This document shows positions 1,534 to 29,289 of a DNA stretch of 32,508 bases, piece after piece. The notes under the pieces are model-generated. The model was given only the letters and a program-made list of their open reading frames with translations, had not been told where the DNA came from and ran no database searches. The position numbers and the translations under genes were made by a program. Within the stretch, counting starts at the first letter, position 1; the number at the start of each line of letters is the position of its first letter. Source of the DNA: a virus (Duplodnaviria; Caudoviricetes); the IMG/VR virus record IMGVR_UViG_3300032295_001260, positions 1 through 32,508 of that record; one strand, given 5' to 3'.

Positions 1534-1541
1534 GATAAATA
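1534..1541 (+). promoter_or_regulatory. Putative late promoter (GATAAATA) for the giant fibre gene
   Basis: Intergenic ATAAATA 30 nt before ATG 1571, followed by the SD-like AGGA at 1561-1564. Confidence 0.65.
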
Positions 1542-1570: not shown

Positions 1571-4500
1571 ATGGCAGCAGAACCGTTTAACTCTCTGGGT
1601 GGCTTTAGTACAGGCATACCCGCAAACACCGTAATCGATGCTAATGGCAACGTTGTTACCAACGTTATGGTACCTACCGGTAACGTTGTAGCTAATACAA
1701 TTTCAGCAAACAGCTTGACATTATCAGGTAACATTAATTTAGGTGATGCAAATAACGTAACAATATTAGGCGGTCAAAATGGTTATTTCCTACAAACTGA
1801 TGGTACAGGTAACTTAACTTGGGCTGCCACTGGAAACGGCGGAGGCAGTAACGCAACTCCAGCGGGGTCTAATACACAAGTACAGTTCAATGACGCCGGC
1901 AGTTTTGGTGCTGATGCAGGATTCACTTACAACAAAAATACCAATACACTAACAGCAGAATTTGTAGTTGCTAGTGCAAACATTACTGCTAACATAGTTT
2001 CTGCAAACTATCTATATGGTGATGGTAGTAATATTACAGGTATAACAGGACTTTCAGGTACTAGTGGTTACAGTGGTAGATCAGGTTGGTCTGGATTCTC
2101 CGGTACAAGTGGCACTAGTGGTCAACAAGGTACTTCGGGCTTTAGTGGCACAACTGGTATCAGTGGATTTAGTGGTAGATCAGGTTTCTCAGGTACTACA
2201 GGTCTTAGTGGTATTTCGGGACATTCAGGTAAATCAGGTTTTAGTGGCTCAGGCATAAGTGGTTGGAGTGGTATCAGTGGTTTCTCCGGACAACTAGGTT
2301 TAAGTGGTGTATCCGGTGTAAGTGGTTTTAGTGGATCGGGTATAAGCGGATTTACAGGAATATCAGGTATAAGTGGATATTCTGGTACTTCAGGTACATC
2401 AGGTATCAGTGGATTTACTGGTACAAGTGGCACGTCAGGTGTTAGTGGATTTAGCGGTACTTCAGGTATCAGTGGATTTAGTGGTACATCAGGTATCAGT
2501 GGATTTAGTGGAACATCGGGTATAAGTGGATTTAGTGGTACATCAGGTATCAGTGGATTTAGTGGTACATCAGGTATCAGTGGATTTAGCGGTACATCAG
2601 GTACTAGCGGTTGGTCAGGAACTAGTGGTTGGTCAGGTACAACTGGTATATCAGGATATAGCGGTGCAACCGGTCTTAGTGGATACTCAGGAACTTCAGG
2701 TGTATCTGGTTCAGGGGTAAGTGGTTTCTCAGGAACGTCAGGATTCAGTGGTACAACAGGTATCAGTGGATTTTCAGGTAGAGGTATTAATATTGCAGGT
2801 AGTGTAGCTAACTATACTTTTCTTCCTAACGGAGCACCCGCCGGAACATTGTACATCGTTCAAAATGCAGGTGGCGGATATAGTGCAGGCGATGGTGCAG
2901 TAAGTAATGGTGATAATACATGGACTAACATTGGAACTCTGCAAGGCCCGTCAGGTGTAAGTGGATTTAGTGGATCCGGTGTTTCGGGCTTCAGTGGTAT
3001 TAGTGGAGTATCAGGCATTAGTGGTTTCTCAGGTACAAGTGGTATATCAGGATTATCAGGAACCAGTGGTATAATAGGCACAACAGGTGTAAGTGGTTTC
3101 TCAGGTGATTCAGGCATCAGTGGTTTCTCAGGTAATTCAGGCATCAGTGGTTTCTCAGGTGCAACAGGAGTAAGTGGCTTTACCGGTACTAGTGGTGTAA
3201 GTGGTACAACTGGGTATTCAGGTACCAGTGGTTTTAGTGGTACATCAGGTATCAGCGGTACATCAGGTATCAGCGGTACATCAGGTACAACTGGTGTTAG
3301 TGGTTGGTCAGGTATTAGTGGTCAATCAGGAACTTCAGGATTTAGTGGAACTTCAGGTTGGTCAGGTGTTTCTGGCGCATCAGGTACATCAGGCATAAGT
3401 GGTACGTCAGGTATCAGTGGATTTAGTGGTACGTCAGGTTTCAGTGGTACTACTGGTATTAGTGGATTTAGTGGTACATCAGGCACATCAGGTGTCAGTG
3501 GTGAATCAGGCATCAGTGGATTTAGTGGCTCTGGTGTAAGTGGCTTTAGTGGTGAATCAGGCATCAGTGGATTTAGTGGCTCTGGTGTAAGTGGATTCTC
3601 CGGTACAAGTGGATTTAGTGGTACATCAGGCACATCAGGCATAAGTGGTACGTCAGGTATCAGTGGATTTAGTGGTACATCAGGCGAAAGTGGATTCTCC
3701 GGTACAAGTGGATTTAGTGGTACATCAGGCACATCAGGTATAAGTGGTTACTCTGGTATAAGCGGTACATCAGGTATAAGCGGTACATCAGGCGCCGGTG
3801 GTATCTCATCAACTATCTTTGAATACTTTGCAGACACAGGTGCTACATCAGGTGATCCAGGTAACGGTGATATATTATGGAATAACGCAACACAAACAAG
3901 TGCTACTCAAATCAATGTAAGTCATTTAACTAATGATGGTATTGACATTGATATTTATTTGGCACTATTAACACAAACTGAAGTTATAACATTACAAGAC
4001 AAAGCTAATAGTGCTAATTTCCAACGATGGGAAATCAATGGAACACCAACATCTGTGGCAAATCTTTACTGGACTGTTCCAGTAACATTATTAAGTTCAG
4101 GTGGAACTGGAACTACTGGTTTTAGTAATGGTGCTGAAATAATCTTAGCATTGGTACAAGGTGTAAGTGGTGCTAGTGGTGTAAGTGGTGCTAGTGGTGT
4201 AAGTGGTACATCAGGATTCAGCGGTGCTAGTGGCACTACCGGTATCAGTGGTTGGTCAGGTGCAAGTGGCACTACCGGTGTTAGTGGTACATCAGGTACA
4301 TCGGGTATATCAGGATTCTCTGGTACAACTGGTATATCAGGATTCTCTGGTACTAGTGGTATATCGGGCATAAGTGGATTCTCAGGAACTAGTGGCACAT
4401 CAGGCATAAGTGGTGCATCAGGTACAACTGGTGTTAGTGGATGGTCTGGTGCATCAGGAACATCAGGTGAAAGTGGTTTCTCAGGAACATCAGGTGAAAG

Positions 4501-7500
4501 TGGTTTCTCAGGAACATCAGGTATATCAGGTACTACAGGTATAAGTGGCTTCTCTGGTACAAGTGGTACTTCAGGTATCAGTGGCACAACCGGCATAAGT
4601 GGTGTCAGTGGATGGTCAGGAACTACCGGTGTGTCAGGAACATCAGGAACATCAGGTACTAGTGGTTGGTCTGGTATTAGTGGTACATCAGGTGTCAGTG
4701 GATATACAGGTGTTTCAGGTATTAGTGGTGAATCAGGTATAAGCGGTACATCAGGTATAAGCGGTACATCAGGCTTCAGTGGTGTTAGTGGTACTAGTGG
4801 AACTAGTGGTACATCAGGTACCTCAGGAGAATCAGGTGCTAGTGGTATTAGTGGATACACTGGTACATCAGGTATTAGTGGCTACTCTGGTAAGTCAATT
4901 AATATTGCAGGTAGCGTATTTGATTATTCGTATCTTCCTAACGGAACCCCTGCAGGAACATTGTACATCATTCAAAACACCGGCGGTGGTTATAATGCAG
5001 GTGACGGTGCAGTAAGTAATGGTGATAATACATGGACTAATATAGGACCGTTACAAGGACCATCAGGCTATTCAGGTGTTAGCGGTGCATCAGGTATAAG
5101 TGGCTTCTCAGGTGAATCAGGTATAAGTGGCTTTTCAGGTGCATCAGGTGCATCAGGCACAACAGGTGTAAGTGGTTTCTCAGGTACTTCAGGTATTAGT
5201 GGTACATCAGGTATCAGCGGCGAGAGTGGTATATCTGGTTACTCAGGTGAATCGGGCATCAGTGGATTCTCAGGTGAATCAGGTATCAGTGGATTCTCAG
5301 GTGCATCCGGTGCATCAGGTATCAGTGGCGAGAGTGGTATCAGTGGCTTCACCGGTATCAGTGGTTATTCAGGAATTAGTGGTACATCTGGTATATCAGG
5401 ATATACTGGAATATCAGGTATATCTGGCACAACAGGTATTAGTGGTTATAGTGGTACAACTGGTGTAAGCGGCTGGTCAGGTACTAGCGGTGATAGTGGT
5501 TACTCAGGCACAATAGGTATCAGTGGATGGTCAGGTATTAGTGGTCAATCAGGAACTTCAGGTACATCGGGTATAAGCGGTATATCAGGGTACACTGGCG
5601 TAAGTGGCTGGTCAGGTGTGAGCGGTACTAGCGGTACATCTGGTGCAAGTGGTACATCAGGCTGGTCTGGTACATCAGGCATAAGTGGTACATCAGGCAC
5701 ATCAGGTGAAAGTGGTTTCTCAGGTACATCAGGCACATCAGGTGTTAGTGGTTTCTCTGGTGCTAGTGGCGCAAGTGGTGCTAGTGGCGCAAGTGGTATT
5801 TCAGGTTGGTCAGGCATTAGTGGTACTAGTGGCACATCAGGTGAAAGTGGATATTCTGGTACTTCGGGAACTTCAGGTGTAAGCGGCGCTAGTGGCGCAT
5901 CCGGTACAAGCGGTACATCAGGATATACCGGTGTATCAGGTTGGTCGGGTATTAGTGGTACTAGTGGTACTAGCGGAGCAAGTGGCACAAGTGGTTGGTC
6001 AGGTCAATCAGGCACCACTGGTATTTCAGGTATTAGTGGTACAAGCGGCATTTCAGGAACTTCAGGATTAAGTGGTTACTCAGGTGAACCGGGTGACCAC
6101 TATGCTACTACAAGCTCAACATCATTGACTATAAGCACAGGAACAAAAACACTAGTTGTAGATACAGGATTAGCGTATACTGTAGGGCAAGACATTGTTT
6201 TAGCTTTTAATTCTACTAATACAATGAACGGTCCTATTCTTAGCTATAATAAGAATACAGGTGACTTGTCTGTTAATATTATTGAAACTGCAGGATCAGG
6301 AACATATACATCATGGGCTATAAACTTAGATGGAGCTATTGGCCCACAAGGTTTTTCAGGTGCATCAGGCACAACAGGCGTAAGTGGTTTCTCAGGTACT
6401 TCAGGTATTAGTGGTACATCGGGCATTAGCGGTACATCAGGTGTTAGCGGTTGGAGCGGCACAACAGGTGTAAGTGGTACTAGTGGTGTATCAGGTACAA
6501 GTGGTTGGTCAGGTATTAGTGGTATATCAGGTACATCAGGTTTTAGTGGCTTGTCAGGTGAATCAGGTATATCAGGATGGTCTGGTACTAGTGGTACAAG
6601 TGGTGCATCAGGATGGTCTGGTGCAAGTGGTACTAGTGGTTGGTCTGGTACATCAGGTATTAGTGGAACATCAGGCGTAAGTGGTTTCTCAGGTACATCA
6701 GGCACATCAGGCATCAGTGGATTCAGTGGCACATCAGGAACATCAGGTACATCAGGAACATCAGGTGTTAGTGGTTATACCGGTGTATCAGGATGGACAG
6801 GCGTAAGCGGTACATCAGGTACATCTGGTGCAAGTGGTACTTCAGGTTGGTCTGGTACATCAGGTATAAGTGGTACTAGTGGTACATCAGGTACAAGTGG
6901 TACATCAGGTACTAGCGGTTGGTCAGGACAGAGTGGTACAAGTGGTACTTCAGGTGCCACTGGTGTTAGTGGTTGGTCAGGACAGAGTGGTACGAGTGGT
7001 ACATCAGGATGGTCTGGTGCGAGTGGTATAAGTGGAGCAAGCGGTACATCAGGTACTTCAGGTGTGAGTGGTTTCAGTGGTACATCAGGAACATCAGGTA
7101 CATCAGGTATCAGTGGATTTAGTGGCACATCAGGTATTAGTGGTACAACAGGTGTTAGTGGTTTCAGTGGCACTACAGGTGTCAGTGGATTCAGTGGTAC
7201 ATCAGGTTGGTCAGGTTTCTCTGGTACTAGTGGTTACTCAGGTCAAGACGGTGGTATGTTGACACCAAGTACTTACTTAGCTGTTGGTAAACTTGCAGGC
7301 GATCAAACTATTACAACGAATGCAGACATTATAATTGATTTCGTTGATGATGTTGATCCTAAAGGATGGTGGAACGCTTCTACAAAACGATTTACACCAA
7401 ACGTAGCAGGATATTATAGCGTATCTATATTTGTATTGTTTGGCGCAGGCGCGGTGACTAATAACCAATACAATACACAAATTCGTATAAATGGTAATCA

Positions 7501-10500
7501 AGTTGCTATTTTTCAAAATCAAATTACTACCTCAATTGGCTTATCACAGGGCGGCACAAAAACAGTTTACCTAAATGGTACTACTGATTATGTAGACTTT
7601 ACTGCGTTTAACGGAAATTCAGGTAGCGTAGTCCTTTCTTCAGGTAACGCAACTACTTTCTCTATCAACTTGCTTGCATATGGTGAGTCAGGTACATCAG
7701 GCTTCAGTGGATTCAGTGGTATATCAGGTACAACAGGTGTAAGTGGATTCTCTGGTACAAGTGGCACTAGTGGCACTAGTGGCACTAGTGGCTGGTCAGG
7801 TACGTCAGGTACTTCAGGGTGGAGTGGTACTTCAGGCACGTCAGGTGTCAGTGGTTTCTCAGGTACAACGGGTATTAGTGGTTTCTCGGGAACTTCAGGT
7901 ACAACTGGTAGAAGTGGCTTCAGTGGTACAACCGGTATAAGTGGATTTAGCGGTACATCGGGATTTAGCGGCACAAGCGGCACAAGTGGTTTCTCAGGAA
8001 CTTCAGGTACATCAGGAGTAAGTGGCTTCTCAGGAACTACCGGTGTATCAGGATTCAGTGGTACGTCAGGCACATCAGGAACTACCGGTGTATCAGGATT
8101 CAGTGGCACATCGGGTGCATCAGGTGCTAGTGGTATATCAGGTGTTTCAGGTAATGCCGGTATCTCATCAACTATCTTTGAATACTTTGCAGATACTGGT
8201 GCTACATCAGGTGATCCTGGTAATGGCGATATCTTATGGAATAATGCAACACAAATAAGTGCTACTCAACTCAATATAAGCGATAAAACTAATGATGGTA
8301 TTGACATTGATATCTATCTAGCATTATTGACACAAACCGAAGTAATAACATTACAAGATAAAGCTAATCATACTAATTTCCAACGTTGGGAAATCAGTGG
8401 AACACCAACATCAGTAAGCACTTATTGGACGTTCCCGGTAACATTATTAGCTTCAGGTGGAAATGGAACAACTAATTTTACTAATGGTACTGAACTAATT
8501 CTTGCATTGGTACAGGGTGTTTCGGGTGTAAGCGGTACTAGTGGTAGATCAGGTTGGTCTGGTACTAGTGGTATATCAGGTACATCGGGTATTAGTGGAA
8601 CAACAGGTATCAGTGGATTTAGTGGCACTAGTGGCACATCAGGTATTAGTGGAACAACAGGTGTTAGTGGATTTAGTGGCACATCAGGCATTAGTGGAAC
8701 AACCGGCGTAAGTGGTTGGTCAGGTGCAAGTGGTACAACTGGTGTTAGTGGTTGGTCAGGTGCAAGTGGTACAACTGGTGTTAGTGGTACTAGTGGTATA
8801 TCAGGCTTTAGTGGAACAAGTGGCACAACAGGTGTAAGTGGCTGGTCTGGTGCAAGTGGTACAACAGGTATCAGTGGATTCTCAGGCACAACTGGTGTCA
8901 GTGGTTTCTCAGGTACTACAGGTATCTCTGGTACTACAGGTGTTAGTGGTTTTAGTGGCACTACAGGTGTAAGTGGATTTAGCGGTAGATCAGGTTGGTC
9001 AGGTGTGTCGGGATGGTCAGGCACATCAGGCATCAGTGGATACTCAGGCACATCAGGCATTAGTGGGTTCAGTGGTACATCAGGTACAAGCGGTATATCA
9101 GGAACAACTGGTATCAGCGGTTACTCAGGTACTACTGGTGTATCTGGTTGGAGCGGCACAACGGGTGTAAGTGGCACATCAGGTGTCTCCGGTACATCAG
9201 GTGTCAGTGGATGGACAGGTACATCAGGTACAACTGGTGTAAGTGGTTTCTCAGGAACATCTGGTGTTAGTGGATGGTCAGGTACAACTGGTGTAAGTGG
9301 TACATCAGGAACATCGGGTGTCTCGGGTTGGTCTGGTGCAAGTGGTACTACAGGCGTAAGTGGATGGAGTGGCACAAGTGGTATATCAGGTACTACTGGT
9401 ATTAGTGGCTTCTCAGGTACTTCAGGCACAACAGGCGTTAGTGGCTTCTCCGGTGCAAGTGGTACAACTGGTGTTAGTGGATGGTCCGGTGCATCAGGTA
9501 CAACAGGTATCAGTGGTACAAGTGGCTGGTCTGGTGCAAGTGGTACAACAGGTATCAGTGGATTCTCAGGTACATCAGGAACATCTGGCGTAAGTGGATT
9601 CAGTGGCACATCAGGCATTAGTGGAACAAGTGGTTGGTCTGGTGCTAGTGGCGCAACCGGCGTAAGCGGTTTTAGTGGCACTTCAGGTATAAGTGGTACA
9701 ACTGGTATAAGTGGTACAACAGGTGTTAGTGGATTCTCAGGTACATCAGGAACATCTGGCGTTAGTGGATGGTCCGGTACAACTGGTATATCAGGTACAA
9801 CAGGTGTAAGTGGATTCAGTGGTACAACTGGTATATCAGGTACAACAGGTGTAAGTGGATTCAGTGGTACATCAGGCACAACAGGTGTTAGTGGATTCAG
9901 TGGCACATCAGGAACATCAGGCGTTAGCGGTTTCTCAGGAAGATCAGGATTCAGTGGTACATCAGGATTCAGTGGTACATCAGGAACATCTGGTTGGTCA
10001 GGCACAACAGGTGTGTCAGGTTGGTCAGGTACAACTGGTGTTAGCGGTACGTCAGGCACATCAGGCACATCAGGTTGGTCTGGTGTAAGTGGTATATCCG
10101 GTACAACTGGAGTAAGTGGATTCTCAGGTGCTACAGGTGTAAGCGGTAGATCAGGATTTAGTGGTGTTTCTGGTTGGTCTGGTACTAGCGGTACATCAGG
10201 TCAAGCAGGACCTAGTACAGCAATCAATGCTACGCAAGATACATCAACTACTGCATTGTATCCTGTTATGGTTGGTGCTACTGGTTCTAATCAAACACCT
10301 AAAGCAACTACAACTAAGTTTGCGTTTAATGCAAGTACAGGTACATTGACTTTAGGCACAGGTACTGGTGGTAATATTACTGGTGCTAACGTCATTTCTG
10401 CTAGTTATTTTGACTTTGGAACAACAGACGCTATTACAGCGGCAGGTTCTACTCAAGGTACTGCTACGGTAATAGTAACAGCTATTAACAATGTAACAAC

Positions 10501-10723
10501 AGTTGCCGCAAGTACAGGTGTTATATTGCCAACAGCAGAAGCAGGTCTACGTGTTATTGTTAGAAACGGTGGAGCAAACGCATTGAACGTTTATCCAAAC
10601 ACATCTGACTCTATCAATGCAGCCTCAGCGAACGTTGCATATTCATTATTAGTTGGTGGTTGTGTAGAATTTATTGCTATGAATGCTACAAACTGGTATA
10701 CATTAAACGCTACATACGCTTAA
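1571..10723 (+). CDS. Giant (3050 aa) Gly-X-Ser collagen-like fibre protein with interspersed globular modules; putative virion fibre
   Basis: Uninterrupted 9.15-kb ORF with SD and late promoter. N-terminal phage structural motifs ([29 protein letters not shown]). Seven blocks with Gly at every third residue, an internal C1q-like domain, and a C-terminal beta-rich domain ([26 protein letters not shown]). Confidence 0.85.
2451..2601 (+). repeat. Near-exact 27-bp tandem repeat (about 5.5 copies), encoding SGTSGISGF
   Basis: Unit TTAGTGGTACATCAGGTATCAGTGGAT repeated with only a few synonymous changes. Confidence 0.85.
2782..2950 (+). repeat. Fibre module A, copy 1 (about 56 aa; copy 2 at about 4891-5061)
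   Basis: [46 protein letters not shown] occurs twice, sharing the exact DNA GGTGCAGTAAGTAATGGTGATAATACATGGACTAA. Confidence 0.9.
3800..4160 (+). repeat. Fibre module B, copy 1 (about 120 aa; copy 2 at about 8160-8516)
   Basis: [32 protein letters not shown]...[31 protein letters not shown]...LALVQG occurs twice, sharing the exact DNA GGTATCTCATCAACTATCTTTGAATACTTTGCAGA. Confidence 0.9.
4891..5061 (+). repeat. Fibre module A, copy 2
   Basis: Near-identical to 2782-2950. Confidence 0.9.
7255..7680 (+). other. C1q/TNF-like beta-sandwich domain inside the fibre
   Basis: Pattern DQTI....[32 protein letters not shown]...[12 protein letters not shown]...TFSINLL resembles the gC1q fold (F-T-x-x-x-x-G-x-Y, then L...D.V). 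Recognised by eye. Confidence 0.7.
8160..8516 (+). repeat. Fibre module B, copy 2
   Basis: Near-identical to 3800-4160. Confidence 0.9.
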
Positions 10724-10724
10724 A

Positions 10725-10773
10725 ATTTAGGACTCTTTCTGCTCAGTCATATATAGTAGAAAGGGTCCTAAAT
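10725..10773 (+). promoter_or_regulatory. 19-bp hairpin that occludes the RBS and start codon of the first glycosyltransferase; late-promoter-like CATATATA in the loop
   Basis: ATTTAGGACTCTTTCTGCT (10725-10743) pairs with AGTAGAAAGGGTCCTAAAT (10755-10773) using two G-U pairs. The right arm includes AAAGGG and the AT of ATG 10772. Confidence 0.75.
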
Positions 10774-11524
10774 GAAATATAGCATCGTTATTCCTACCTA
10801 CAACAATTGTGATAAGTTCTTAAAACCGTGCCTAGAAGCACTTTTCAAATACTCGCACCTCAGTGACATAGAATTGGTTATCAGTGCAAACGGCTGTACT
10901 GATAATACTTTTGAATTTTTGGGCAAACTTAAAGATAGTTTTGACTATCTAGGACTGTCCGATAACTTAAAAATAGTTTGGAACAAAGATGCGCTTGGAT
11001 ACGCAAGAGCAACTAATGCAGGCATTAGAGTATCAACATGTGATAAACTCGTAATGCTAAACAATGATGCTATTCTCCTCGGTCAACACAGAGGTGATTG
11101 GTTACGATTGTTAAACAGTGCATTTGAAGAAAACCCTAAATGCGGTATCTCTTGCTCATTAAAGAAACACTCCCCTATTACTAAGATGGACTTTGGTGTC
11201 TTTTTCTGTGTAATGTTTCCTAGAGAAGTATTGAACAAAGTAGGATACTTAGATGAGCGTTATGAAAAAGGTGGCAACGAAGATATTGACTTCTGTGCGG
11301 CTGCACAACTTTTAGGATATGAGGTTGTTCAGCCTGTTCCATTAACATGGAGCGAAGAAGCTCAGATACATGTAGGTACATTCCCGTTATGGCATCAAGG
11401 TGAAGGTACAGTTCATAATCCCGAACTAGTAAGTGATTGGGAACGTACATTTAGAATCAATGAGTTAAAACTAGCTCAAAAATATAACATGGCTTGGTAT
11501 GAAGCCTATAAACATACAGTATAA
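10772..11524 (+). CDS. Glycosyltransferase family 2 (GT-A)
   Basis: SIVIPTYN start, LGYARATNAG, LNND (DxD-like), GYLDERY..GGNEDIDF. Confidence 0.9.
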   Translation: MKYSIVIPTYNNCDKFLKPCLEALFKYSHLSDIELVISANGCTDNTFEFLGKLKDSFDYLGLSDNLKIVWNKDALGYARATNAGIRVSTCDKLVMLNNDAILLGQHRGDWLRLLNSAFEENPKCGISCSLKKHSPITKMDFGVFFCVMFPREVLNKVGYLDERYEKGGNEDIDFCAAAQLLGYEVVQPVPLTWSEEAQIHVGTFPLWHQGEGTVHNPELVSDWERTFRINELKLAQKYNMAWYEAYKHTV

Positions 11525-11533
11525 AGGCAACAA

Positions 11534-13546
11534 ATGAAATACAGCGTAGTAATACCTACATACAATCATTGTGATGATTTACTAAAACCATGCGTGGAAT
11601 CAATCTTCAAATACACAGACGTAACTGATATTGAACTTATCATAAGTGCTAATGGATGCAAAGATAACACATTCACTTATCTTGCTTCTCTTAAAGAAAA
11701 ATATGATCTATTAGGATTAAGTGACAATCTAAAAATAGTTTGGAACGCAGACGCACTTGGTTACTCACGTGCATGTAATGCAGGCATTAAAGTTGCAACA
11801 ACTGACTTGATTGTATTGTTGAATAACGACACTGTATTGTTACCTCAAGAAAAGAATCGTTGGGTCAAACAATTAGAGTCTGTGTTTATAGGTAATGATA
11901 AAGCCGGTATCAGTTGTTTGATTAAAAGCGAATCAGAACCTGCAGGACATGACTTTGCTATTTTCTTCTGCGTTATGATTCATCGTAGAGTGTTTAATAA
12001 GATTGGTTTACTAAGTCTAGATTACGGCGCAGGTGGAGGTGAAGATACTGAATTCTCTATTGAATGCGAACGTGCAGGATTTGAAGTAATAGAATGTGTT
12101 ACAAAATCATGGAACGCAGAAGTAGGTATGTATTGCGGCGACTTCCCTATCTATCATTTAGGTGAGGGCACTGTACATGACAAAGAACTTGTTCCTGAAT
12201 GGGAAGATATCTTCTTAACTAATTCATTAACACTAGCTAGGAAGTATAACCCACATTGGTACCAATGGCGTCTAAGTAATTATTGGGAACGTGCTGTGTT
12301 CTTTAAAGGAGATGAGATTGCTCCTAGAGAGATTACACGATACTCATGGGCGGCACAAAACATTCTAGGTACTAACGTATTTGAGTTAGGTTGTTCTAGT
12401 GGATATGGGCTACAGTTCTTACCTGAAAATATTGAATACACCGGTCTAGATTACGATAAGCGTATCATCCCTGTAGCACGTGACCAAAAATGGCGTGAAA
12501 AAGCTACATTCGTTCATGGTGATATCAACACATATGAATTAGGTCAGTACGACACTATCATTGCATTTGAAGTTATTGAACATTTGGATAATGGATTAGA
12601 GATTGTAGAAAAGTTAAAGAAACATTGCAATCGATTAATGATTACTGTTCCTATGTTAGAAACACCAGGCTTATGGGGCCCGCATCACAAGATACATAAC
12701 TTAGATGAATCGTTCTTTCCGGGATTTAAGTTTAAGTTTATTGCACCCGATGGCAGTTTACGTGACGAACCACACAACAGGGGTGATAAAGAAAACATCA
12801 ACTTGATGTTATGCGTTTGGGATAAGGATAATACAGTGACTCAATCACAAACTAAATCAATAGAAGAATCATTGCGTTTCTTAACTGAACAAGATCCTGC
12901 AATGTACAGAGAAGTTATTGAAGCCAATCAGTATCATTTAACTGCTGAAAAAGTAAAAGATAGAATTGTTATTGACATTGGCGCAAACATTGGCGCATTC
13001 TCATTGTACGCAGCCTCATTAGGTGCAAAGAAAGTTATCTCTGTAGAACCTATTAGTGCATCTTATAACACATTCTTAAAGAACATTCATAGATTAGGTT
13101 TGACAAATATAACTACCTATAAGAAGATTGTTGCAGAGAAAGGTAATCAGTTCTTGCCTGTTAGTTTGAACTCTAATGCCGGCGCCAATAGTATGTATAA
13201 CGTTTCTGATAACTATGAAGTTGTTGAGACAATTACATTCTCTGAGATTATGGATCAAATTGCTGGTCATGATATTCTATTAAAGTTAGACTGCGAAGGC
13301 GGAGAGTATGATGTAATATTGAATGCATCAGCACACGACTTTGTTAGAATCAATGAAATCATGATGGAGATACATACTGATTTGCACCCTAAACATAAGG
13401 GTAAAGAAATAATAGAACAAATTCTAGCTAAGAACGGCTACAATAGATTAGACTCTGTGCAAATTTACTTTTGGGATTGGGATCATAATGGTCAACCAAT
13501 CAACTATCGTGAAGCACCTTTTGTAAATCAACATTGGAAAAAATGA
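11534..13546 (+). CDS. Three-domain fusion: GT2 glycosyltransferase + class I SAM methyltransferase + FkbM-family methyltransferase
   Basis: N-terminal SVVIPTYN/LNND/EDTEF. Middle VFELGCSSGYG...FEVIEHL. C-terminal VIDIGANIGAFS...LLKLDCEGGEY. Confidence 0.9.
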   Translation: MKYSVVIPTYNHCDDLLKPCVESIFKYTDVTDIELIISANGCKDNTFTYLASLKEKYDLLGLSDNLKIVWNADALGYSRACNAGIKVATTDLIVLLNNDTVLLPQEKNRWVKQLESVFIGNDKAGISCLIKSESEPAGHDFAIFFCVMIHRRVFNKIGLLSLDYGAGGGEDTEFSIECERAGFEVIECVTKSWNAEVGMYCGDFPIYHLGEGTVHDKELVPEWEDIFLTNSLTLARKYNPHWYQWRLSNYWERAVFFKGDEIAPREITRYSWAAQNILGTNVFELGCSSGYGLQFLPENIEYTGLDYDKRIIPVARDQKWREKATFVHGDINTYELGQYDTIIAFEVIEHLDNGLEIVEKLKKHCNRLMITVPMLETPGLWGPHHKIHNLDESFFPGFKFKFIAPDGSLRDEPHNRGDKENINLMLCVWDKDNTVTQSQTKSIEESLRFLTEQDPAMYREVIEANQYHLTAEKVKDRIVIDIGANIGAFSLYAASLGAKKVISVEPISASYNTFLKNIHRLGLTNITTYKKIVAEKGNQFLPVSLNSNAGANSMYNVSDNYEVVETITFSEIMDQIAGHDILLKLDCEGGEYDVILNASAHDFVRINEIMMEIHTDLHPKHKGKEIIEQILAKNGYNRLDSVQIYFWDWDHNGQPINYREAPFVNQHWKK

Positions 13547-14523
13547 ACAAAGAAATATTATGCTCAATCTCTACTAAAGGGAGATATGATACAACACTAC
13601 CAATGGCAATTTCGTCTGTTATAACACAGACAAAACGCCCTGACTATATCATCATTCAAGATGATAACGATGAACCAAAAGATGTTCGTGAAATTCAACA
13701 CTATAACTATCTAATGCAAATGTTAAGCGAATGCGGAATTGCATGGGAATGGTTATATGCTGAAAAGAAAGGTCAACATCACAATCATCAACGTGCTAAT
13801 ACTAGAGGATTTAAGTGGGTTTGGCGCTTAGACGATGATACTATTGCTGAATCTAACGTGTTAGAGACACTATATAGACACGCAACCGCAGAAGAAAATG
13901 TGGGTGCAGTTGGTGGTTCTGTGTTAACTCCGCCTAGCATGGGTGAAGTTAACGCTACCGGTAAGATTGAAAACATATACAATGAACCTAATTTACAATG
14001 GGGTCGAATCAATCAAAAGAAAGAAGTCGATCATTTGCATTGTTCATTCTTATACAGAGCAGGTGTAGCTGATTATTGCTTGTCGTTGTCACGCATTGCA
14101 CACAGGGAAGAAACACTGTTTACATATGAGTTGATTAAGAGAGGCTACAAGAACTACGTTGTACCTGATGCTATCACTTGGCACTTAAAGAATAAAGTAG
14201 GTGGTATACGTGATGGCGTTCATGCAATGTTTGAACATGATGAACGTATATTTCAAAACATCATGAACTTTAAAGACCAAACAATCGTTGTTTTAGATTG
14301 TGGTATGGGTGACCATATTGTCTTTAAGAAAGTTTTACCGTACATTAAAAACCCAGTTATATTCAGTTGCTATCCTGAAATCATACCAGGCCGTAGCATT
14401 GCCGAAGCACAAGCATTGTTTGGTGATATACACGAATACAACGTCTATGCCCATATGGATCGTTGGAATTGGACAGGCTCACTTGAAGATGCTTTCAAAA
14501 AGTTCTATAATGTGTCTGTATGA
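13543..14523 (+). CDS. GT2-like glycosyltransferase fused to an N-terminal-half-like segment of a GT9 (heptosyltransferase-type) enzyme
   Basis: WVWRLDDD, VGAVGG, HREET (GT-A). C-terminal VVLDCGMGDHIVFKKVLP resembles the GT9 G(L/I)GD motif. ATG 13543 overlaps the upstream TGA (ATGA), so it is preferred over the TTG at 13534. Confidence 0.8.
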   Translation: MNKEILCSISTKGRYDTTLPMAISSVITQTKRPDYIIIQDDNDEPKDVREIQHYNYLMQMLSECGIAWEWLYAEKKGQHHNHQRANTRGFKWVWRLDDDTIAESNVLETLYRHATAEENVGAVGGSVLTPPSMGEVNATGKIENIYNEPNLQWGRINQKKEVDHLHCSFLYRAGVADYCLSLSRIAHREETLFTYELIKRGYKNYVVPDAITWHLKNKVGGIRDGVHAMFEHDERIFQNIMNFKDQTIVVLDCGMGDHIVFKKVLPYIKNPVIFSCYPEIIPGRSIAEAQALFGDIHEYNVYAHMDRWNWTGSLEDAFKKFYNVSV

Positions 14524-15011
14524 TTAAATTAAATTTAGGTAGCGGCGGAGACTATATTGATGGGTTTGTTAACATAGACCTATATGCCGAACGTGCGGAT
14601 GAAAGATACGACATTGCTAAGTTGCCCTATATGGATAACTCAGTAGATGAAATCAGAGCATATCATGTAATTGAACACTTTGATTACCTACATGCACATG
14701 ATGTACTGAAAGAATGGCATCGAGTATTAAAGCCAGGCGCTAAGATAAAGATTGAGACTCCTGACTTTTTAGAATCATGTAAAGAATTCATCAAAGCCGA
14801 TCAAGATGGTAGATGGAATCTCTATGGTCATTTCTTCTCAACTGGTTGGATTAATCCAGGACTGATTCACAAATTTCTTTACACTGAGTATGAATTACAA
14901 AAGACTATGACATGGGCCGGCTTTCAAAACTTAGTTAGATGCGAACCAAACTCTAGTTATGTGACACCTAATACAAAACATATATTTTTAAATATTGAAG
15001 CAACAAAATGA
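14520..15011 (+). CDS. Class I SAM-dependent methyltransferase (Methyltransf_11-like)
   Basis: KLNLGSG, FVNIDL, LPYMDNSVDEI..YHVIEHF, EWHRVLKPG, ETPD. ATGA overlaps at both ends. Confidence 0.9.
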   Translation: MIKLNLGSGGDYIDGFVNIDLYAERADERYDIAKLPYMDNSVDEIRAYHVIEHFDYLHAHDVLKEWHRVLKPGAKIKIETPDFLESCKEFIKADQDGRWNLYGHFFSTGWINPGLIHKFLYTEYELQKTMTWAGFQNLVRCEPNSSYVTPNTKHIFLNIEATK

Positions 15012-15460
15012 TTATAATTTCACCCTATTCTAAGTTTATGCGTAATGGTGCTAAACACCCTAAGAATTATCCCTTTTGGGAAGAAGTACTTAAACACGTT
15101 AAAGAACCAGTCATTCAGGTTGGCGTTGAAGGCGAGACACAGTTAGTACCTGATTTTAGAAAAAATCTTTCATTAACTGAATTAGCAACTCTTGTTAATG
15201 AAGCTAAGACTTGGATGAGTTGCGATAGCTTCTTCCAACATTTTTGCTGGGACTTAGGTAAACCAGGCGTAGTGTTATTCGGACAATCTGACCCTAACAT
15301 CTTTGGACATATAGAAAACATCAATCTGTTGAAAGACAGAAAGTATCTGAGAGAGAAACAATTTTGGATTTGGGAACAAGCAGAATATAATGAAGATGCT
15401 TTCGTTGGTCCATATATGGTGGTTCAAGCCCTTAAGGTGTTTGGTGTTGAAACAAAATAA
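15008..15460 (+). CDS. C-terminal Rossmann half of a GT9 / ADP-heptose heptosyltransferase-like glycosyltransferase
   Basis: IIISP....KNYP.W, LSLTELATLVNEA..WMSCDSFFQH...LGKPGVVLFG match the GT9 C-domain pattern (K.WP...L.EL.ALI..A..F(I/V)G.DSG..H.A.A.G.P.V.LFG). Confidence 0.8.
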   Translation: MIIISPYSKFMRNGAKHPKNYPFWEEVLKHVKEPVIQVGVEGETQLVPDFRKNLSLTELATLVNEAKTWMSCDSFFQHFCWDLGKPGVVLFGQSDPNIFGHIENINLLKDRKYLREKQFWIWEQAEYNEDAFVGPYMVVQALKVFGVETK

Positions 15461-15906
15461 TGGAAAATTTATTTCAGACTGAGTATGATACCATTTTTAA
15501 GAATTGGTATAAGTTGAGAATGTCCCTAGAGGACAAAGACATAAAAACACAATGCATAGAAGTAGACAAATGGTGGCAACTAGCACCTCAAGTTAGTCAC
15601 TATCTACATAGTGATTTTGTGCATGAATGGCCTAACCCATGGGAACTCATATCCGAAAATCATTATTGTAATATAGCACGTGGTTTGGGTATGTTTTATA
15701 CACTATATCTGTTGGGTATACAAGACATTGCTTTTGTTGAAGCAAAAGACTATAATAACGAAGATGTGGCTCTTATACTAGTAGAGGACGCAAAATATAT
15801 ACTTAATTACTGGCCCGATACGGTAGTAAATAACAATCTACAAGATTTTACCATAGTCAAGCATATTGACCCCCTGCCAATAATTAAAAAAATAGGTTTA
15901 AAATGA
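15460..15906 (+). CDS. Hypothetical phage protein with a transglutaminase-like/BTLCP (LapG, C93)-like motif
   Basis: WPNPWELISENHYCNIARGLGMFYTLYLLGI resembles the BTLCP core W.TP.E.....GDCED.A..KY..L..LG. The start overlaps the upstream stop (TAATG). Confidence 0.5.
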   Translation: MENLFQTEYDTIFKNWYKLRMSLEDKDIKTQCIEVDKWWQLAPQVSHYLHSDFVHEWPNPWELISENHYCNIARGLGMFYTLYLLGIQDIAFVEAKDYNNEDVALILVEDAKYILNYWPDTVVNNNLQDFTIVKHIDPLPIIKKIGLK

Positions 15907-24966: not shown

Positions 24967-26067
24967 ATGAGTTACCTATTTACAAGTGAAAGCGTTAGTG
25001 AAGGTCATCCAGACAAAGTAGCTGACGCAATTAGCGATGCCATTTTAGATTTAATTATGGCGAACGAAGATCCTGCACAACGATGTGCATGTGAGACTTT
25101 GGTAACAACAAACCGTGTAGTAGTTGCAGGTGAATATAAAGGTTCACTGCATGATCTTCAAGTTGACAGTGCAGTTCGCCGTGTTATTAAGTTGATTGGT
25201 TATGAACAAGAAGGTTTCGACTGGCGAAAGTTAGAAGTCACTAATCTATTACATGGTCAAAGTGCTGATATTGCATTAGGTACCGATAACTTTGGCGCTG
25301 GAGATCAAGGCTTAATGTTTGGCTATGCATGTAATGAAACTGAATCGCACATGCCAAGCGCAATCTATTGGTCACATCGTATTGTAGAAAAACTTTCTGA
25401 ACTACGAAAAAACAAGGTCATGACTTGCCTTGGTCCAGATGCCAAGAGTCAGGTTACGTTTGAATATGATGACAATGGTAAGCCTACACGTATTGCTAAA
25501 GTTGTTTGTTCTACCCAACATACAGAAGATACGAACATTGAAACATTGCGTAGAGCAGTAGAGGAAGTGATTCGTGCTATACTTCCTGCAAAATTATTAG
25601 ACAATGCTACTGAATTTTATATTAATCCTACTGGTCGTTTCGTTATTGGTGGTCCTGATGGCGACACTGGGCTCACTGGAAGAAAAATTATTGTGGACAC
25701 CTACGGTGGTTATAGTCCTCATGGTGGCGGTGCTTTCAGTGGCAAAGATCCTACCAAAGTAGATCGTAGTGCGGCATATTTAACACGTTGGATTGCTAAG
25801 AACATCGTAGCAAGTGGTAAGGCAGATTGGGCAACTGTACAAATCAGTTACGCAATTGGTCTAGCACAACCAATGAGTTTTTATATTGAAACTGCTGATG
25901 CTAAACAAGGTCGTGAACTAACTAAATGGGTACAAGACAACGTTGATTTGACACCTAAAGGTATCATTGATCGTTTCAATTTATTCAGACCTATCTATAG
26001 TAAAACAACCAACTACGGTCATTTTGGCAAAGCTGATTTACCGTGGGAAAACATAAATCTATTTTAA
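24967..26067 (+). CDS. metK: S-adenosylmethionine synthetase
   Basis: LFTSESVSEGHPDK, GAGDQGLMFGYA, GGPDGDTGLTGRKIIVDTYGG, GGGAFSGKDPTKVDRSAAY, YGHFG. Confidence 0.98.
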   Translation: MSYLFTSESVSEGHPDKVADAISDAILDLIMANEDPAQRCACETLVTTNRVVVAGEYKGSLHDLQVDSAVRRVIKLIGYEQEGFDWRKLEVTNLLHGQSADIALGTDNFGAGDQGLMFGYACNETESHMPSAIYWSHRIVEKLSELRKNKVMTCLGPDAKSQVTFEYDDNGKPTRIAKVVCSTQHTEDTNIETLRRAVEEVIRAILPAKLLDNATEFYINPTGRFVIGGPDGDTGLTGRKIIVDTYGGYSPHGGGAFSGKDPTKVDRSAAYLTRWIAKNIVASGKADWATVQISYAIGLAQPMSFYIETADAKQGRELTKWVQDNVDLTPKGIIDRFNLFRPIYSKTTNYGHFGKADLPWENINLF

Positions 26068-26068
26068 A

Positions 26069-26632
26069 ATGAACTCTAGTCCAGAACGAGGAACATTTCA
26101 TATTCAAAACAAACTCAAGCAATTAGAAGAAGGTACTACCACAGCCGAAGATGCTGAAGGTATGATCGATTTCTATAAATCTTGGGAAGACCGACGCCGT
26201 GAGTTAGAACAAACTGCCGAATGGCGTCAAAACAATATGGAGTATGACCTTCGTTCTTGCAAGTGGGTTTGTGACAAAGCGAAAGCTAGTGAAGCATACG
26301 CACAAAACTTGTATGCCGCAATTTGTAATAATGATTTCACTAGAAATGATGTATGGCCTATACTACAAGGTCAAACATGGAGTGCTAGTTGGAGAAGCGC
26401 AGGTGGCATCATCGCTAACATGGTTGAAGAAGGTGATTATATTGATTGGTATTGTTCCGGCATCACCGGAGAAATCTCCGATGAAGAATACAATGATATG
26501 ACTAAACAACAACAAGAAAGATACATGTATCTAAAAACTCATTTTGTCCCGGAAAGTGTAGTCACTGATGAGATACGTGAAGACCTCCTTAAACTAGGAT
26601 GGTTAGTAGTAGATAATGGAAATGAAGAATGA
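26069..26632 (+). CDS. Hypothetical phage protein
   Basis: 187-aa ORF packed between neighbours. It has motif-like segments YAQNLYAAICNN and WSASWRSAGGIIA..GDYIDWYCSG. No function recognised. Confidence 0.75.
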   Translation: MNSSPERGTFHIQNKLKQLEEGTTTAEDAEGMIDFYKSWEDRRRELEQTAEWRQNNMEYDLRSCKWVCDKAKASEAYAQNLYAAICNNDFTRNDVWPILQGQTWSASWRSAGGIIANMVEEGDYIDWYCSGITGEISDEEYNDMTKQQQERYMYLKTHFVPESVVTDEIREDLLKLGWLVVDNGNEE

Positions 26633-27543
26633 AAATATTAATAACAGGATTGAGTGGGTTTATTGGTGGATATCTCAATAAAAGATTGAAATCAAAATAC
26701 GAGATTTATGACTTGGGTTGTAATCTACTAGAGTTTGATAAAGTAAAAGAAAGACTGCATGAAGTCAATCCTGATTTTATTATTCACCTAGCCGCACGTA
26801 CAGAAGTTGAACGTAGCTTTTATGAACAAACAACGTTCAGTCAGATTAATTATACAGGTACCGTTAACCTGATTGAATCTAGTAAAGATTTGACTAACTT
26901 AAAGTTATGCATCTTTAGTTCAACTATGGAAACATATGGTTGGCAACCTGAAAGCGATTTGATTAGAGACGGCAAAGATTTTACATTACCTGTCTTCACA
27001 GAAGAAACTAAACAACATCCCAATGCTCCATATGCTGTAGCAAAGATGGCTTGTGAGTTATACTACAATTATGCAAATCGTGCGTATAACTATCCTTTCT
27101 GTGCTATTCGGCAAACTAATAGTTATGGTCGTGTAGACAATGATTTCTTTGTAGTTGAGCAAATCATTACACAGATGTTGAAGAACCCTAACGAAATCAA
27201 TTTGGGATATAAGCACCCATACAGAAACTTCTTATTCATTGAAGATTTAGTAGATATGTATGAAACTATCCTTGATAAGCACACAGAAGCACGTGGTGAA
27301 ATTTTCTGTGCAGGACCTAACAACGCAGTTTCAATCGAAGAACTAGCAAATACTATAGCCAATAAGTTAGGTTGGAAGGGCAAAATCAATTGGGACACTA
27401 AACCAGCAAGACCTGGTGAAATTTACGTTCTTAATTCTACGAATGACAAAGCAACATCAATGTTGGGTTGGTCACCTAGTACTAGTCTCAGTGATGGCCT
27501 AGACAAGACCATTGAAATTTGGCGTACTAAATACAATATGTAA
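26629..27543 (+). CDS. NAD-dependent NDP-sugar epimerase/dehydratase (extended SDR; RmlB/Gmd-like)
   Basis: ILITGLSGFIG, IHLAA, SSTMETYG, PYAVAK (YxxxK), RNFLFIEDL, RPGE, LGWSP. Confidence 0.92.
   Translation: MKILITGLSGFIGGYLNKRLKSKYEIYDLGCNLLEFDKVKERLHEVNPDFIIHLAARTEVERSFYEQTTFSQINYTGTVNLIESSKDLTNLKLCIFSSTMETYGWQPESDLIRDGKDFTLPVFTEETKQHPNAPYAVAKMACELYYNYANRAYNYPFCAIRQTNSYGRVDNDFFVVEQIITQMLKNPNEINLGYKHPYRNFLFIEDLVDMYETILDKHTEARGEIFCAGPNNAVSIEELANTIANKLGWKGKINWDTKPARPGEIYVLNSTNDKATSMLGWSPSTSLSDGLDKTIEIWRTKYNM
27527..27533 (+). promoter_or_regulatory. Putative late promoter (CTAAATA) upstream of iscU
   Basis: Late-consensus match about 24 nt before ATG 27557, with SD AGGAG in between. Confidence 0.5.
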
Positions 27544-27556
27544 TTAGGAGATAAAC

Positions 27557-27943
27557 ATGGCTTATAGCGCAAAAGTAGTTGACCACTATGAAAATCCACG
27601 AAATGTGGGTAAGTTTGAGATTGACGACACTGTAGGTACTGGTATGGTCGGTGCCCCTGCTTGTGGGGACGTAATGAAATTACAAATTAAAGTAGACGAG
27701 TCTACGGGAGTTATAACAGATGCTAGATTTAAAACGTATGGGTGCGGGTCAGCGATTGCTAGCTCAAGTCTTGTCACAGAATGGGTTAAAGGCAAAACCC
27801 TCAACGAGGCTGCAACAATTAGAAACTCACAGATCGCAGAAGAACTCAGTCTCCCACCAGTCAAAATCCACTGCTCCATCCTTGCCGAAGACGCCATCAA
27901 AGCCGCGGTAGAAGATTACAAAAAGAAGCATGATTTGCATTGA
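27557..27943 (+). CDS. iscU: Fe-S cluster assembly scaffold IscU
   Basis: MAYSAKVVDHYENPRNVG, GAPACGDVMKLQIKV, FKTYGCGSAIASSS, LPPVKIHCS (HscA-binding LPPVK). Confidence 0.98.
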   Translation: MAYSAKVVDHYENPRNVGKFEIDDTVGTGMVGAPACGDVMKLQIKVDESTGVITDARFKTYGCGSAIASSSLVTEWVKGKTLNEAATIRNSQIAEELSLPPVKIHCSILAEDAIKAAVEDYKKKHDLH

Positions 27944-28952
27944 ACCCGATGTTAGTGTAAATCCATTTTTTTCTATAACTTGGGAATGCACCTTAAAGTG
28001 TAACTTGGACTGTAGTTATTGTTCATCACATGATAACTCGGTTCCTCACCCACCGTTAGATGAGTGTTTGCGTACTATAGATTTTCTATACGAGTACGTG
28101 GACATCATCATGAATAACAAACCCCCTCAACAAAAACACGTTAGCTTCAACATCTTTGGTGGTGAGAGCCTATTTCATCCAAACATCATAGACATAATCG
28201 AATATGCATATAACAAGCACAATGGAAATTATGCATGGACTTTAGGATTAAACACAGTAACTAATGCAATTGTAAAACCTAAAGTTTGGGACATGTTACT
28301 TGACTACTTTGATTACCTTACTGTAAGTTATCACACTGAGTCTACTATAGCAGAACAAGAACTTTTCAGAAGAAATGTATTGGAATTACAAAAACGTAAT
28401 AAAAGATTCCAAGTATCAATTCTGTTACACCCGATAAACATTCAAAACTGCAAAAGCATGATTGATTGGTGTAAAGACCATGATATACCTTATTGGGCAC
28501 GTAAGATGGATACGCCTCCTGGACAAGGTACTAGAGAACATACTATAACATTAGTCAAACGTAATGAAATACTTAAAACTAGACAATTGGGTAGATCATG
28601 CTGTGGTGGTCAAAAATTTAATGTGGATCAAGATTATACTAAAACAGTCTCAATCGTACCGAACAATTTCATGGATTGGAATTGTGGTGTAAACCACTTT
28701 TTTATATTTGTAAAACAGGAAACTAAAGAAGTATTCATCAACAAAGACTGTTTAATGTCATACGATAGTGAGTACGGACCAATAGGATCACTGACTGACC
28801 CAACCAAAATCGTACAAGACTTGAAATATAGAATTGAAAACGGAACAGATTACATTGTATGTAAAAAGGAAAGATGTTGGTGTGGTCTTTGTTCACCCAA
28901 AGCAAAAGACAAAGTTGTATACGATGATATAATGAAAAAATATCACGTATGA
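27930..28952 (+). CDS. Radical SAM protein with Cys-rich C-terminus
   Basis: CNLDCSYC (CxxxCxxC), FGGESLFHP, TNA, SYHTE. Additional Cys motifs CCGG, WNC, C, and CKKERCWCGLC. Confidence 0.9.
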   Translation: MICIEPDVSVNPFFSITWECTLKCNLDCSYCSSHDNSVPHPPLDECLRTIDFLYEYVDIIMNNKPPQQKHVSFNIFGGESLFHPNIIDIIEYAYNKHNGNYAWTLGLNTVTNAIVKPKVWDMLLDYFDYLTVSYHTESTIAEQELFRRNVLELQKRNKRFQVSILLHPINIQNCKSMIDWCKDHDIPYWARKMDTPPGQGTREHTITLVKRNEILKTRQLGRSCCGGQKFNVDQDYTKTVSIVPNNFMDWNCGVNHFFIFVKQETKEVFINKDCLMSYDSEYGPIGSLTDPTKIVQDLKYRIENGTDYIVCKKERCWCGLCSPKAKDKVVYDDIMKKYHV

Positions 28953-28983
28953 GTATCAGCATTATATACTAATAGGAATATAT

Positions 28984-29289
28984 ATGAGCACTGAACAAGA
29001 CAAACTAAAAAATTCTAAGCGCCGTCATCAAGATGAAGTGGCAATCCAAAAACAAGTTAAGATTGCCAAAGCACATGGGTTAGGATTTAACGATAAGGCT
29101 ATCAAAGAGCCACATCGTTTAGCTAAACATCACGCTATGGATTGCGGTAATCCTGACTGCTATCTATGCGGTAATCCACGCAAGACCCACAAAGACAAAT
29201 TAACAGCACAAGAAAAACGTTTGTTTCAGGATGTAGAAAAAACTACCGATAAACACAGTAATGGACTGCCACCTGCAGAGGATGAATGA
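28984..29289 (+). CDS. Small hypothetical protein with a putative metal-binding motif
   Basis: HRLAKHHAMDCGNPDCYLCGNPRK. SD AGGA and TTATATA (28962-28968) upstream. Confidence 0.7.
   Translation: MSTEQDKLKNSKRRHQDEVAIQKQVKIAKAHGLGFNDKAIKEPHRLAKHHAMDCGNPDCYLCGNPRKTHKDKLTAQEKRLFQDVEKTTDKHSNGLPPAEDE

Follow-up and report, generated by a model that had tools for sequence, protein, structure and literature searches.

A 32,508-nucleotide (nt) stretch of tailed-virus DNA (Duplodnaviria; Caudoviricetes; IMG/VR record IMGVR_UViG_3300032295_001260), which comprises the entire 32.5-kb virus record and is termed here the window, carries a giant collagen-like gene followed by a tightly packed cassette of glycosyltransferase (GT) and methyltransferase genes. 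The cassette probably O-glycosylates Ser and Thr residues at the Y position of the Gly-X-Y repeats of a predicted virion fibre, and would do so late in infection. This reading builds on sequence, domain content, gene linkage and the covariation of an RNA hairpin, from which we infer the chemistry. Fibre glycosylation is likely, because the same enzyme set adjoins Ser-type collagen genes in many phages, including the cultured Methylophilaceae phage P19250A. An initial annotation of the window had put forward such a system, and its interpretation is partly supported by the analysis outlined below.

The fibre gene (1571..10723; plus strand, as are all features of the window unless stated otherwise) encodes a Gly-X-Ser/Thr collagen-like protein of 3050 residues that is recognized by the Pfam Collagen family (E 2.5e-276, 892 bits) and by PHROG tail-fibre families. 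The roughly 700 Gly-X-Ser/Thr triplets initially annotated are borne out by the count: the protein contains 719 Gly-X-Y triplets, with 13 runs of at least four and a longest run of 189, and Y is Ser (620) or Thr (79) in 699/719 of them, while 200 shuffled versions of the protein yield a mean of 50 and a maximum of 81 triplets. The X position is mostly occupied by Thr (246), Ile (114), Phe (99), Val (84), Trp (49), Ala (44) or Tyr (23), and by Pro in 4/719 triplets. Altogether, the repeat part of 2157 residues includes 5 Pro, 31 charged residues and 171 aromatic X residues. The X residues also follow a loose three-triplet rhythm from Thr via an aliphatic to an aromatic residue (the top steps occur 129, 109 and 98 times), which amounts to a superperiod of nine residues. 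The gene is real, since homologous frames are intact in relatives and remain open over 2.7-3.4 thousand residues. If triple-helical, the repeats would extend over about 617 nm (0.286 nm per residue). An unmodified chain without Pro or charge is expected to be unstable, as judged from host-guest peptide data, and Riftia collagen constitutes a precedent for stabilization through Thr glycosylation. The stabilizing effect of Thr glycosylation on collagen is also stated in a study of prophage collagens (PMC3368898).

Several globular parts flank or interrupt the repeats. The N-terminal non-repeat domain (residues 1-156; 1571..2038; phrog_9942 tail fibre, E 5.4e-5) likely anchors the protein in the virion; it matches the repeat-free proteins of loci L133 and L134 and is thus common to non-collagen fibre proteins of the clade. 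A 53-residue knob is present in two copies (2786..2944 and 4898-5056) and is inserted into Ser- and Thr-type fibres in small phages as well, and a 117-residue globular insert, likewise in two copies (3809..4159 and 8168-8515), is common to Gly-X-Ser, Gly-Pro/Ala-Thr and Gly-X-Gln fibres. A 77-residue insert (6101..6331) is unassigned to a family. The C1q-like domain of the initial annotation holds as a look-alike in the ESM Atlas and has no Pfam match: the 141-residue insert in question (residues 1897-2037; 7259..7681), a possible trimerization domain, scores 0.96 and 0.95 to two ESM Atlas clusters, 39% and 49% of whose members contain PF00386, and matches phrog_13286 tail protein (E 2.9e-4). 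A single-sequence AlphaFold model of this insert reached a pLDDT of 35 and was not used; among the loci compared, the insert was seen only in the near-identical L002. The C-terminal non-repeat domain (168 residues; 10217..10720) is a candidate tip and variable among relatives. The phage contigs L326 (59 kb) and L332 encode Gly-X-Ser fibres of 3008 residues and of 2460 residues or more, respectively, and therefore, giant versions are not confined to jumbo phages.

Downstream of the fibre gene, the 48-nt gap and the five packed genes with three GT2 and three methyltransferase domains agree with the initial annotation, and Pfam furthermore assigns one GT9 C-terminal part. The subsequent intergenic distances are +9, -4, -4 and -4 nt (the second-to-third GT gap being counted from the ATG at 13543; it is -13 from the TTG at 13534, the start chosen by the open reading frame (ORF) finder). 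The first gene, labelled GT-A (10772..11524), codes for a GT2 protein of 250 residues (PF00535, E 2.1e-14), an accessory paralogue that is 55% identical to the GT2 domain of GT-B. GT-B (11534..13546) is a protein of 670 residues, in which Pfam recognizes a GT2 domain, a class I methyltransferase domain (residues 274-373) and an FkbM methyltransferase domain (residues 481-636); among relatives these domains are swapped or split. GT-C (13543..14523) combines a core GT2 part adopting the GT-A fold (residues 1-246; Pfam; AlphaFold pLDDT 93.8) with a tail of about 80 residues. The accessory stand-alone methyltransferase (14520..15011; PF08241, E 7.3e-8) is gone from close relatives such as L008, L009, L010, L051 and L053. 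Finally, the core gene GT9-E (15008..15460) encodes a 150-residue GT9-like C-terminal, i.e., nucleotide-sugar-binding, half (PF01075, 26.8 bits at a cut-off of 22), which covers only positions 171-221 of the GT9 profile and scores 0.99 to viral clusters in the ESM Atlas. The block does not end at 15460, as had been assumed, but the overlaps continue into a 148-residue gene and nrdA. A second cluster (24967..32123) comprises genes for MetK (24967), two nucleotide-sugar epimerase/dehydratases (26629 and 29286), a sugar C-methyltransferase-like protein (30154) and a GT2-like protein (31374), and it also holds NifU and a radical SAM gene. In L065, homologues of 29286, 30154 and 31374 are located directly upstream of GT-B, GT-C and GT9-E, and the second cluster may supply donors for fibre modification.

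Sequence comparison indicates that GT-C and GT9-E form the core of the cassette, while the remaining three genes appear accessory. GT-C is followed by GT9-E in 144/144 loci whose flank extends over 600 nt or more, and the stand-alone methyltransferase as well as the GT-A and GT-B domains are lost, split or swapped across relatives. Hence, the five-gene set proposed at the outset is invariant in its GT-C/GT9-E part and variable in the other three genes; P19250A has no GT2 domain of the GT-A/GT-B type, and thus lacks both upstream GT2 domains. Homologues of GT-C fall into 2336 clusters at E 1e-15 and occupy an estimated 1,200 or so viral stretches. Among 185,579 prokaryotic genomes there are 5 matches, all on contigs of metagenome-assembled genomes shorter than 40 kb. 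The core pair is phage-specific.

The GT-C model is level in its likeness to SpsA (Z 17.4, root-mean-square deviation (rmsd) 3.5, 207 residues aligned) and to ppGalNAc-T1 (Z 17.0, rmsd 4.2, 253 aligned), and Foldseek as well as VIA return the GT-A fold, which does not indicate the acceptor class. No GT-B chain is found among the fold-search matches listed for GT-C, which barely cover its tail, and a search of PDB sequences with a GT-C profile yielded chance matches only. The split GT9 postulated in the initial annotation stands for its C-terminal half, the PF01075 match of the gene at 15008. The N-terminal half has to be deduced, as the last ~80 residues of GT-C produce no GT9 N-half match in Pfam or PHROG. 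This tail harbours an invariant GxGDH motif, which presumably resembles GT9 N-termini, a likeness confirmed by no profile, and it is likely the N-terminal half of a split GT9-like enzyme that GT9-E would complete. Tested against heptosyltransferase equivalog models, GT9-E scores below both cut-offs (23.4 bits at a cut-off of 437; 22.1 bits at 185.3). The autotransporter heptosyltransferases TibC and Aah are GT9-related and glycosylate Ser residues of adhesins. Membership in this group (TIGR04414) was rejected: no match was obtained in the GTs of the window at E 0.01 or in related records (0/17), and no TibC chain occurs among the PDB matches.

The association of cassette and fibre was counted in homology-picked locus sets only, which consist of the best 80 matches per query and are non-random, and not in a collection-wide Gly-X-Ser census. 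On the enzyme side, 158 GT-C loci were grouped into 58 clusters at 80% identity, and 14 clusters with less than 5 kb upstream and no collagen were set aside. A Ser/Thr collagen gene is present in the fetched locus of 37 of the 44 informative clusters, and three of the remaining seven have Gly-X-Ser genes elsewhere on the record. The expectation that Pro-rich fibres lack the cassette holds for most of them, which are accompanied by a GT2-TPR gene instead or by none, and fails for one group of large phages (L100), where a Gly-Pro-Thr collagen is paired with the same cassette. The pairing of Ser-type fibre and cassette is therefore strong, but not exclusive.

On the phage side, 80 siphovirus loci were picked by a J-like tail protein and 40 were dropped, mostly since they ended too early. 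GT-C is encoded in all Gly-X-Ser fibre loci of this set (12/12), eight out of ten Thr-type fibre loci have a GT2-TPR gene instead, and the 18 loci without a collagen gene downstream of J, as judged on the fetched flank, contain neither of these enzymes nor another GT. Of 50 whole records searched, 14 contain GT-C; besides the same 12, these are a cut-off Ser-type locus and G060, whose Ser fibre counts 25 triplets. PF00535 was detected in 21/50 whole records, none of them collagen-less, and the collagen-less records include five with a completeness of 90% or more. In a J tree (quick IQ-TREE) the Ser state requires six changes, and 6/6 independent pairs agree (sign test, p 0.031); for the Thr/GT2-TPR pairing, 4/5 independent pairs agree (p 0.125). 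A further 79 loci were picked by the 53-residue knob, 45 of them informative. All 17 Ser-type loci of this set possess the cassette (16 with both GT-C and GT9-E) and none a GT2-TPR gene, and 19 of the 28 Thr-type loci have GT2-TPR and none GT-C. Upon dereplication these figures become 13/13 and 14/19 groups, two or three groups being common to the J set. Two prematurely ended Ser-type knob loci have GT-C elsewhere on their records. Charged non-hydroxyl collagens were not met in the knob-picked set; three Gly-X-Gln loci are on records 2-9% complete.

Accordingly, the synteny suggested by the initial annotation is recovered: the cassette tracks Gly-X-Ser fibres in T4-like as well as lambda-like phages, whose enzymes are 45-60% identical and whose fibre inserts reshuffle, and it is not found in relatives without such fibres. 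In the small siphoviruses L256 and L257, cassette and Ser collagen come and go next to nearly identical J-like tail genes. Direct adjacency of fibre and operon, however, is not general. Lectin-domain genes intervene in the close relatives L001/L048, L042 and L045. In G002, a relative of 335 kb, a distance of over 130 kb separates the Gly-X-Ser fibres from the operon. Up to 12 genes separate fibre and GT operon (L048:2247-9952, L045, L042), and the scanned ones include LamG-lectin and fibrinogen-like domains.

A cultured representative is available. The sole match to GT-C obtained by tblastn among 50,697 phage records is P19250A (58.7%), a siphovirus of freshwater LD28 (10.1101/2020.04.27.064238). 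Its gp23 (APC43908.1; KX815270.1 21390-24995; L135:8750-12355) is a Gly-X-Ser collagen-like protein of 1201 residues with 281 triplets, which has the 53-residue knob and the 117-residue domain in common with the window fibre. Its repeat part is predicted to extend over about 240 nm. The gene order is Ser fibre, methyltransferase, GT-C and GT9-E, all directly adjoining. The isolate thus constitutes a minimal four-gene version, which makes the proposed glycosylated-fibre system experimentally accessible. In GenBank, gp23 carries the annotation of a tail length tape-measure protein.

Promoter-like signals of a late type precede both the fibre gene and the cassette. ATAAATA (1535..1541), a putative T4-like late-promoter-type motif, lies 36 nt before the fibre start; it also precedes the fibre genes of the relatives examined and further structural genes of this clade. 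The T4 late promoter consensus is TATAAATA (PMC3014915). An RNA hairpin of 19 bp (10725..10773) covers the ribosome-binding site and the first two start-codon bases of GT-A, and within its loop a motif (10749-10755) reads ATATATA in the window and ATAAGTA in most relatives, 22-23 nt before the start. With -28 kcal/mol (z -7.4) the hairpin is more stable than each of 200 shuffles (0/200 equally stable). Among 15 distinct sequences, 12/19 pairs are changed on both sides, which exceeds 500 shuffles and all slid controls, where the structure was taken from the window sequence and kinship of the sequences can inflate the count. Loop motif and hairpin suggest late expression. Since the hairpin element is retained where no fibre gene lies upstream, a separate late promoter is likely for the operon, and the late-type signals favour a virion substrate over DNA or host lipopolysaccharide (LPS). 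Scans for sigma-70 promoters and terminators gave nothing beyond shuffles.

The same layout is found in T4 gene e and I-TevI, where a hairpin over the Shine-Dalgarno sequence and start codon is combined with an internal late promoter (PMC3014915); in the case of gene e, translation is blocked on the long early transcripts and proceeds on the late ones (PMC3014915). In contrast to these T4 genes, the element of the window precedes a GT operon and contains the variant motif ATATATA/ATAAGTA as a candidate promoter. Hairpin and ATAAATA are arranged alike at a 230-residue gene that follows nrdA in a relative (L164:14254) and by eye resembles a homing endonuclease.

In the mechanism that we propose, fibre and cassette would each be transcribed from their own late promoter, and the hairpin would block early translation of read-through mRNA. 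The first sugar might be attached to Ser either by GT-C or by a two-chain GT9-like enzyme composed of the GT-C tail and GT9-E. The accessory GT2 domains would extend the glycan, and the methyltransferases would cap or decorate it, with S-adenosylmethionine and modified nucleotide sugars possibly provided by the second cluster. The sugars would stand in for Pro and salt bridges in stabilizing a triple helix of about 0.6 micrometre, and they would keep the aromatic-rich chain soluble. In its broadest form, the truth of which we regard as roughly an even bet, the proposal states that freshwater tailed phages, be they siphoviruses of 38 kb or T4-like phages of 335 kb, assemble Pro-free collagen fibres of up to about 0.7 micrometre, which are held together by hundreds of Ser O-glycans added by the phage. 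Repeat type and enzyme family would then be matched in exchangeable pairs, Gly-X-Ser going with GT-C and a split GT9, and Gly-Pro-Thr with an SgtA-like GT2-TPR enzyme, and the variable methyltransferase and GT2 modules would generate a phage-specific glycan coat.

A number of observations weigh against a cassette dedicated to the fibre. The operon is continued without a gap by nrdA, usually an earlier gene. Four GT-C clusters yielded no Ser/Thr collagen, on records 14-25% complete, and one of these shows a Gly-X-Gln repeat only; G001 (58% complete) has no collagen match either. The near-complete G068 and G073 encode Thr-type fibres without any detected GT, and hence, a hydroxyl residue at Y is not always accompanied by a phage GT. 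Concordant gain and loss are no proof of an enzyme-substrate link, because adjacent genes move together, and the best-80 locus sets are a non-random choice. Moreover, GT-C resembles GT-A enzymes that act on glycans as closely as those that act on proteins, GT9-E is most akin among solved structures to the LPS heptosyltransferases WaaC (E 0.03) and WaaF, and in L056-L061 the operon is located directly 3' of the capsid gene, with no fibre between.

The likeness to WaaC and WaaF would fit a cassette that alters the host surface (LPS core or O-chain) against co-infection and adjoins the fibre gene owing to a shared variable host-recognition region. The sugar-pathway genes of the window are compatible with this possibility, and GTs next to tail fibres of SAR11 myophages have been interpreted along these lines (PMC7029224). 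We nevertheless consider a host-surface role unlikely, as it leaves unexplained both the match between GT family and repeat type and the GT2-free collagen-less sisters; the GT-C family is nearly missing from cellular genomes, late-type expression would come late for exclusion, and no membrane segment is apparent by eye in the five cassette proteins. Alternatively, the enzymes might glycosylate virions in general (capsid, tail, Ser/Thr-rich fibres), with collagen as one substrate or none. Phage GTs are reported to glycosylate capsid and tail-tube proteins of mycobacteriophages (cited in PMC12363180, PMC12619734), and the promoter-like element of the operon itself, its position after the capsid gene in L056-L061 and its occurrence after non-collagen Thr/Ser-rich fibre genes in L062/L063 and L099 agree with a broad specificity. 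Yet, the cassette tracks the Ser collagen while the J-like gene stays near-identical (L256 versus L257), and tblastn with GT-A and GT-C at E 1e-6 matched P19250A only and no mycobacteriophage among the 50,697 phage records, which renders a general role rather improbable.

That the repeat folds unmodified, e.g., into a polyglycine II bundle, with the GT genes as mere hitch-hikers of a shared mobile cassette, is suggested by the near-absence of Pro and the often aromatic or beta-branched X residues, and Gly-rich polyproline II bundles have been described in the phage S16 adhesin (PMC12227593). Turn-free runs of up to 189 triplets with almost no Gly-Gly differ from the known bundles listed, which comprise 6-14 helices; the fibre also includes a C1q-like insert, and hitch-hiking would not preserve the pairing across T4-like and lambda-like phages that have diverged to 45-60% enzyme identity. 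An unmodified fold is therefore very doubtful. Even more far-fetched is a hypermodification of phage DNA by the GTs and methyltransferases, despite DNA glycosylation being the classic role of phage GTs (PMC12619734) and the operon adjoining nrdA/nrdB in the jumbo clade: in small phages the cassette resides in the tail module, away from replication genes, and tracks the fibre type, and the Pfam and PHROG matches of its genes include no base-hydroxylase or DNA-GT family. Glycosylation of the Gly-X-Ser fibre hence remains the preferred reading.

The nearest known systems are SgtA-BclA3 of Clostridioides difficile and BclA of Bacillus anthracis. SgtA, a GT2-TPR protein of 358 residues encoded beside bclA3, attaches O-GlcNAc to Thr and also to Ser of peptides from the collagen region (PMC7157674). 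As in the window, a GT gene of the GT-A fold thus adjoins the gene of a collagen-like protein whose Y position carries a hydroxyl residue. The two differ in that SgtA-BclA3 acts at the spore surface on Gly-Pro-Thr with a single GT2-TPR enzyme, whereas the window specifies a phage with near-Pro-free Gly-X-Ser repeats, a GT2 plus GT9-like core and methyltransferases; Pfam finds no TPR match in its GTs. In domain layout, the Thr-type phage fibres with GT2-TPR proteins of 347-358 residues are closer to SgtA. The mycobacteriophages Che8, Corndog and Myrna likewise are tailed phages with their own virion-modifying GTs, whose substrates are capsid and tail-tube proteins instead of a collagen fibre (cited in PMC12363180, PMC12619734). 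EPclA/B from an E. coli O157:H7 prophage share the Gly-X-Y stalk between globular domains and are trimeric (PMC3368898). Their about 111 collagen residues are Pro- and charge-rich, lack Phe, Trp and Tyr and were unglycosylated in recombinant form (PMC3368898), as opposed to 2157 residues with 5 Pro in the window. Pro and charged residues stabilize the E. coli prophage collagens (PMC3368898), and the window fibre has neither stabilizer. By analogy, the system would work like SgtA-BclA3 and share the principle of mycobacteriophage virion glycosylation, and it would belong to neither family.

Serine-rich repeat adhesin systems (Fap1, GspB, SraP) employ the initiating GT4 pair GtfA/GtfB and accessory Sec genes. 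Neither PF00534 nor a Sec family is among the Pfam matches of the 28 proteins of the window, which is a genome fragment. A literature search, which left most subscription papers and supplements aside, retrieved no paper on glycosylated phage collagen fibres, and the accessible part of the moraphage paper does not mention collagen. New aspects are the split into core and accessory genes, the testing of module pairs against collagen-less controls, a cultured model phage and the hairpin. If the proposal is true, collagen helices have, in addition to hydroxyproline and salt bridges, a third stabilizer in dense Ser glycosylation with almost no imino acids. Virion glycosylation, described for a few mycobacteriophages among the tailed phages, would then turn out to be a widespread aquatic module, and "LPS biosynthesis" genes beside the tail fibres of aquatic phages would gain an alternative reading. 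For recombinant collagen production, a pair of soluble enzymes able to glycosylate Gly-X-Ser repeats would be of use as well.

Further enzyme-fibre combinations were seen in the loci compared. GT2-TPR genes (347-393 residues, SgtA layout) after Gly-Pro-Thr fibres in small phages are a second candidate glyco-collagen system (L223:18108-19154, L237, L243, L247, L251, L255, L268, L269, L017, L025, L027, L029 and L034). As a third pairing, a GT4-type enzyme (PF00534) is encoded a few genes after Gly-Pro/Ala-Thr fibres in L022, L023, L030-L032 and L038. In collagen-less siphoviruses, 2OG-Fe(II) oxygenase genes (370-386 residues) often follow the tail gene (L218, L245, L248, L264, L276, L280, L288 and L292), and L218 additionally encodes a carbamoyltransferase.

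The window starts with a T4 gp23-type capsid gene and also contains nrdA/nrdB, a PAAR gene, an endolysin and MetK. Capsid C-termini are 94-98% identical in relatives, the contigs of which reach 335 kb, and therefore, the window is a piece of a T4-like jumbo phage. The top isolate match of NrdA is 60%. Directly 3' of the major capsid gene lies a fatty-acid desaturase gene (332-1123), followed on the opposite strand by an HNH-like gene (1118-1483), both of which are retained in close relatives. The 148-residue gene (15460-15906) is positioned between GT9-E and nrdA throughout the jumbo clade and not in small phages, and has no match in Pfam, PHROG or NCBIfam. In several relatives (L079:13317-18157, L084, L158, L198), nrdA is split into two or three ORFs by insertions.

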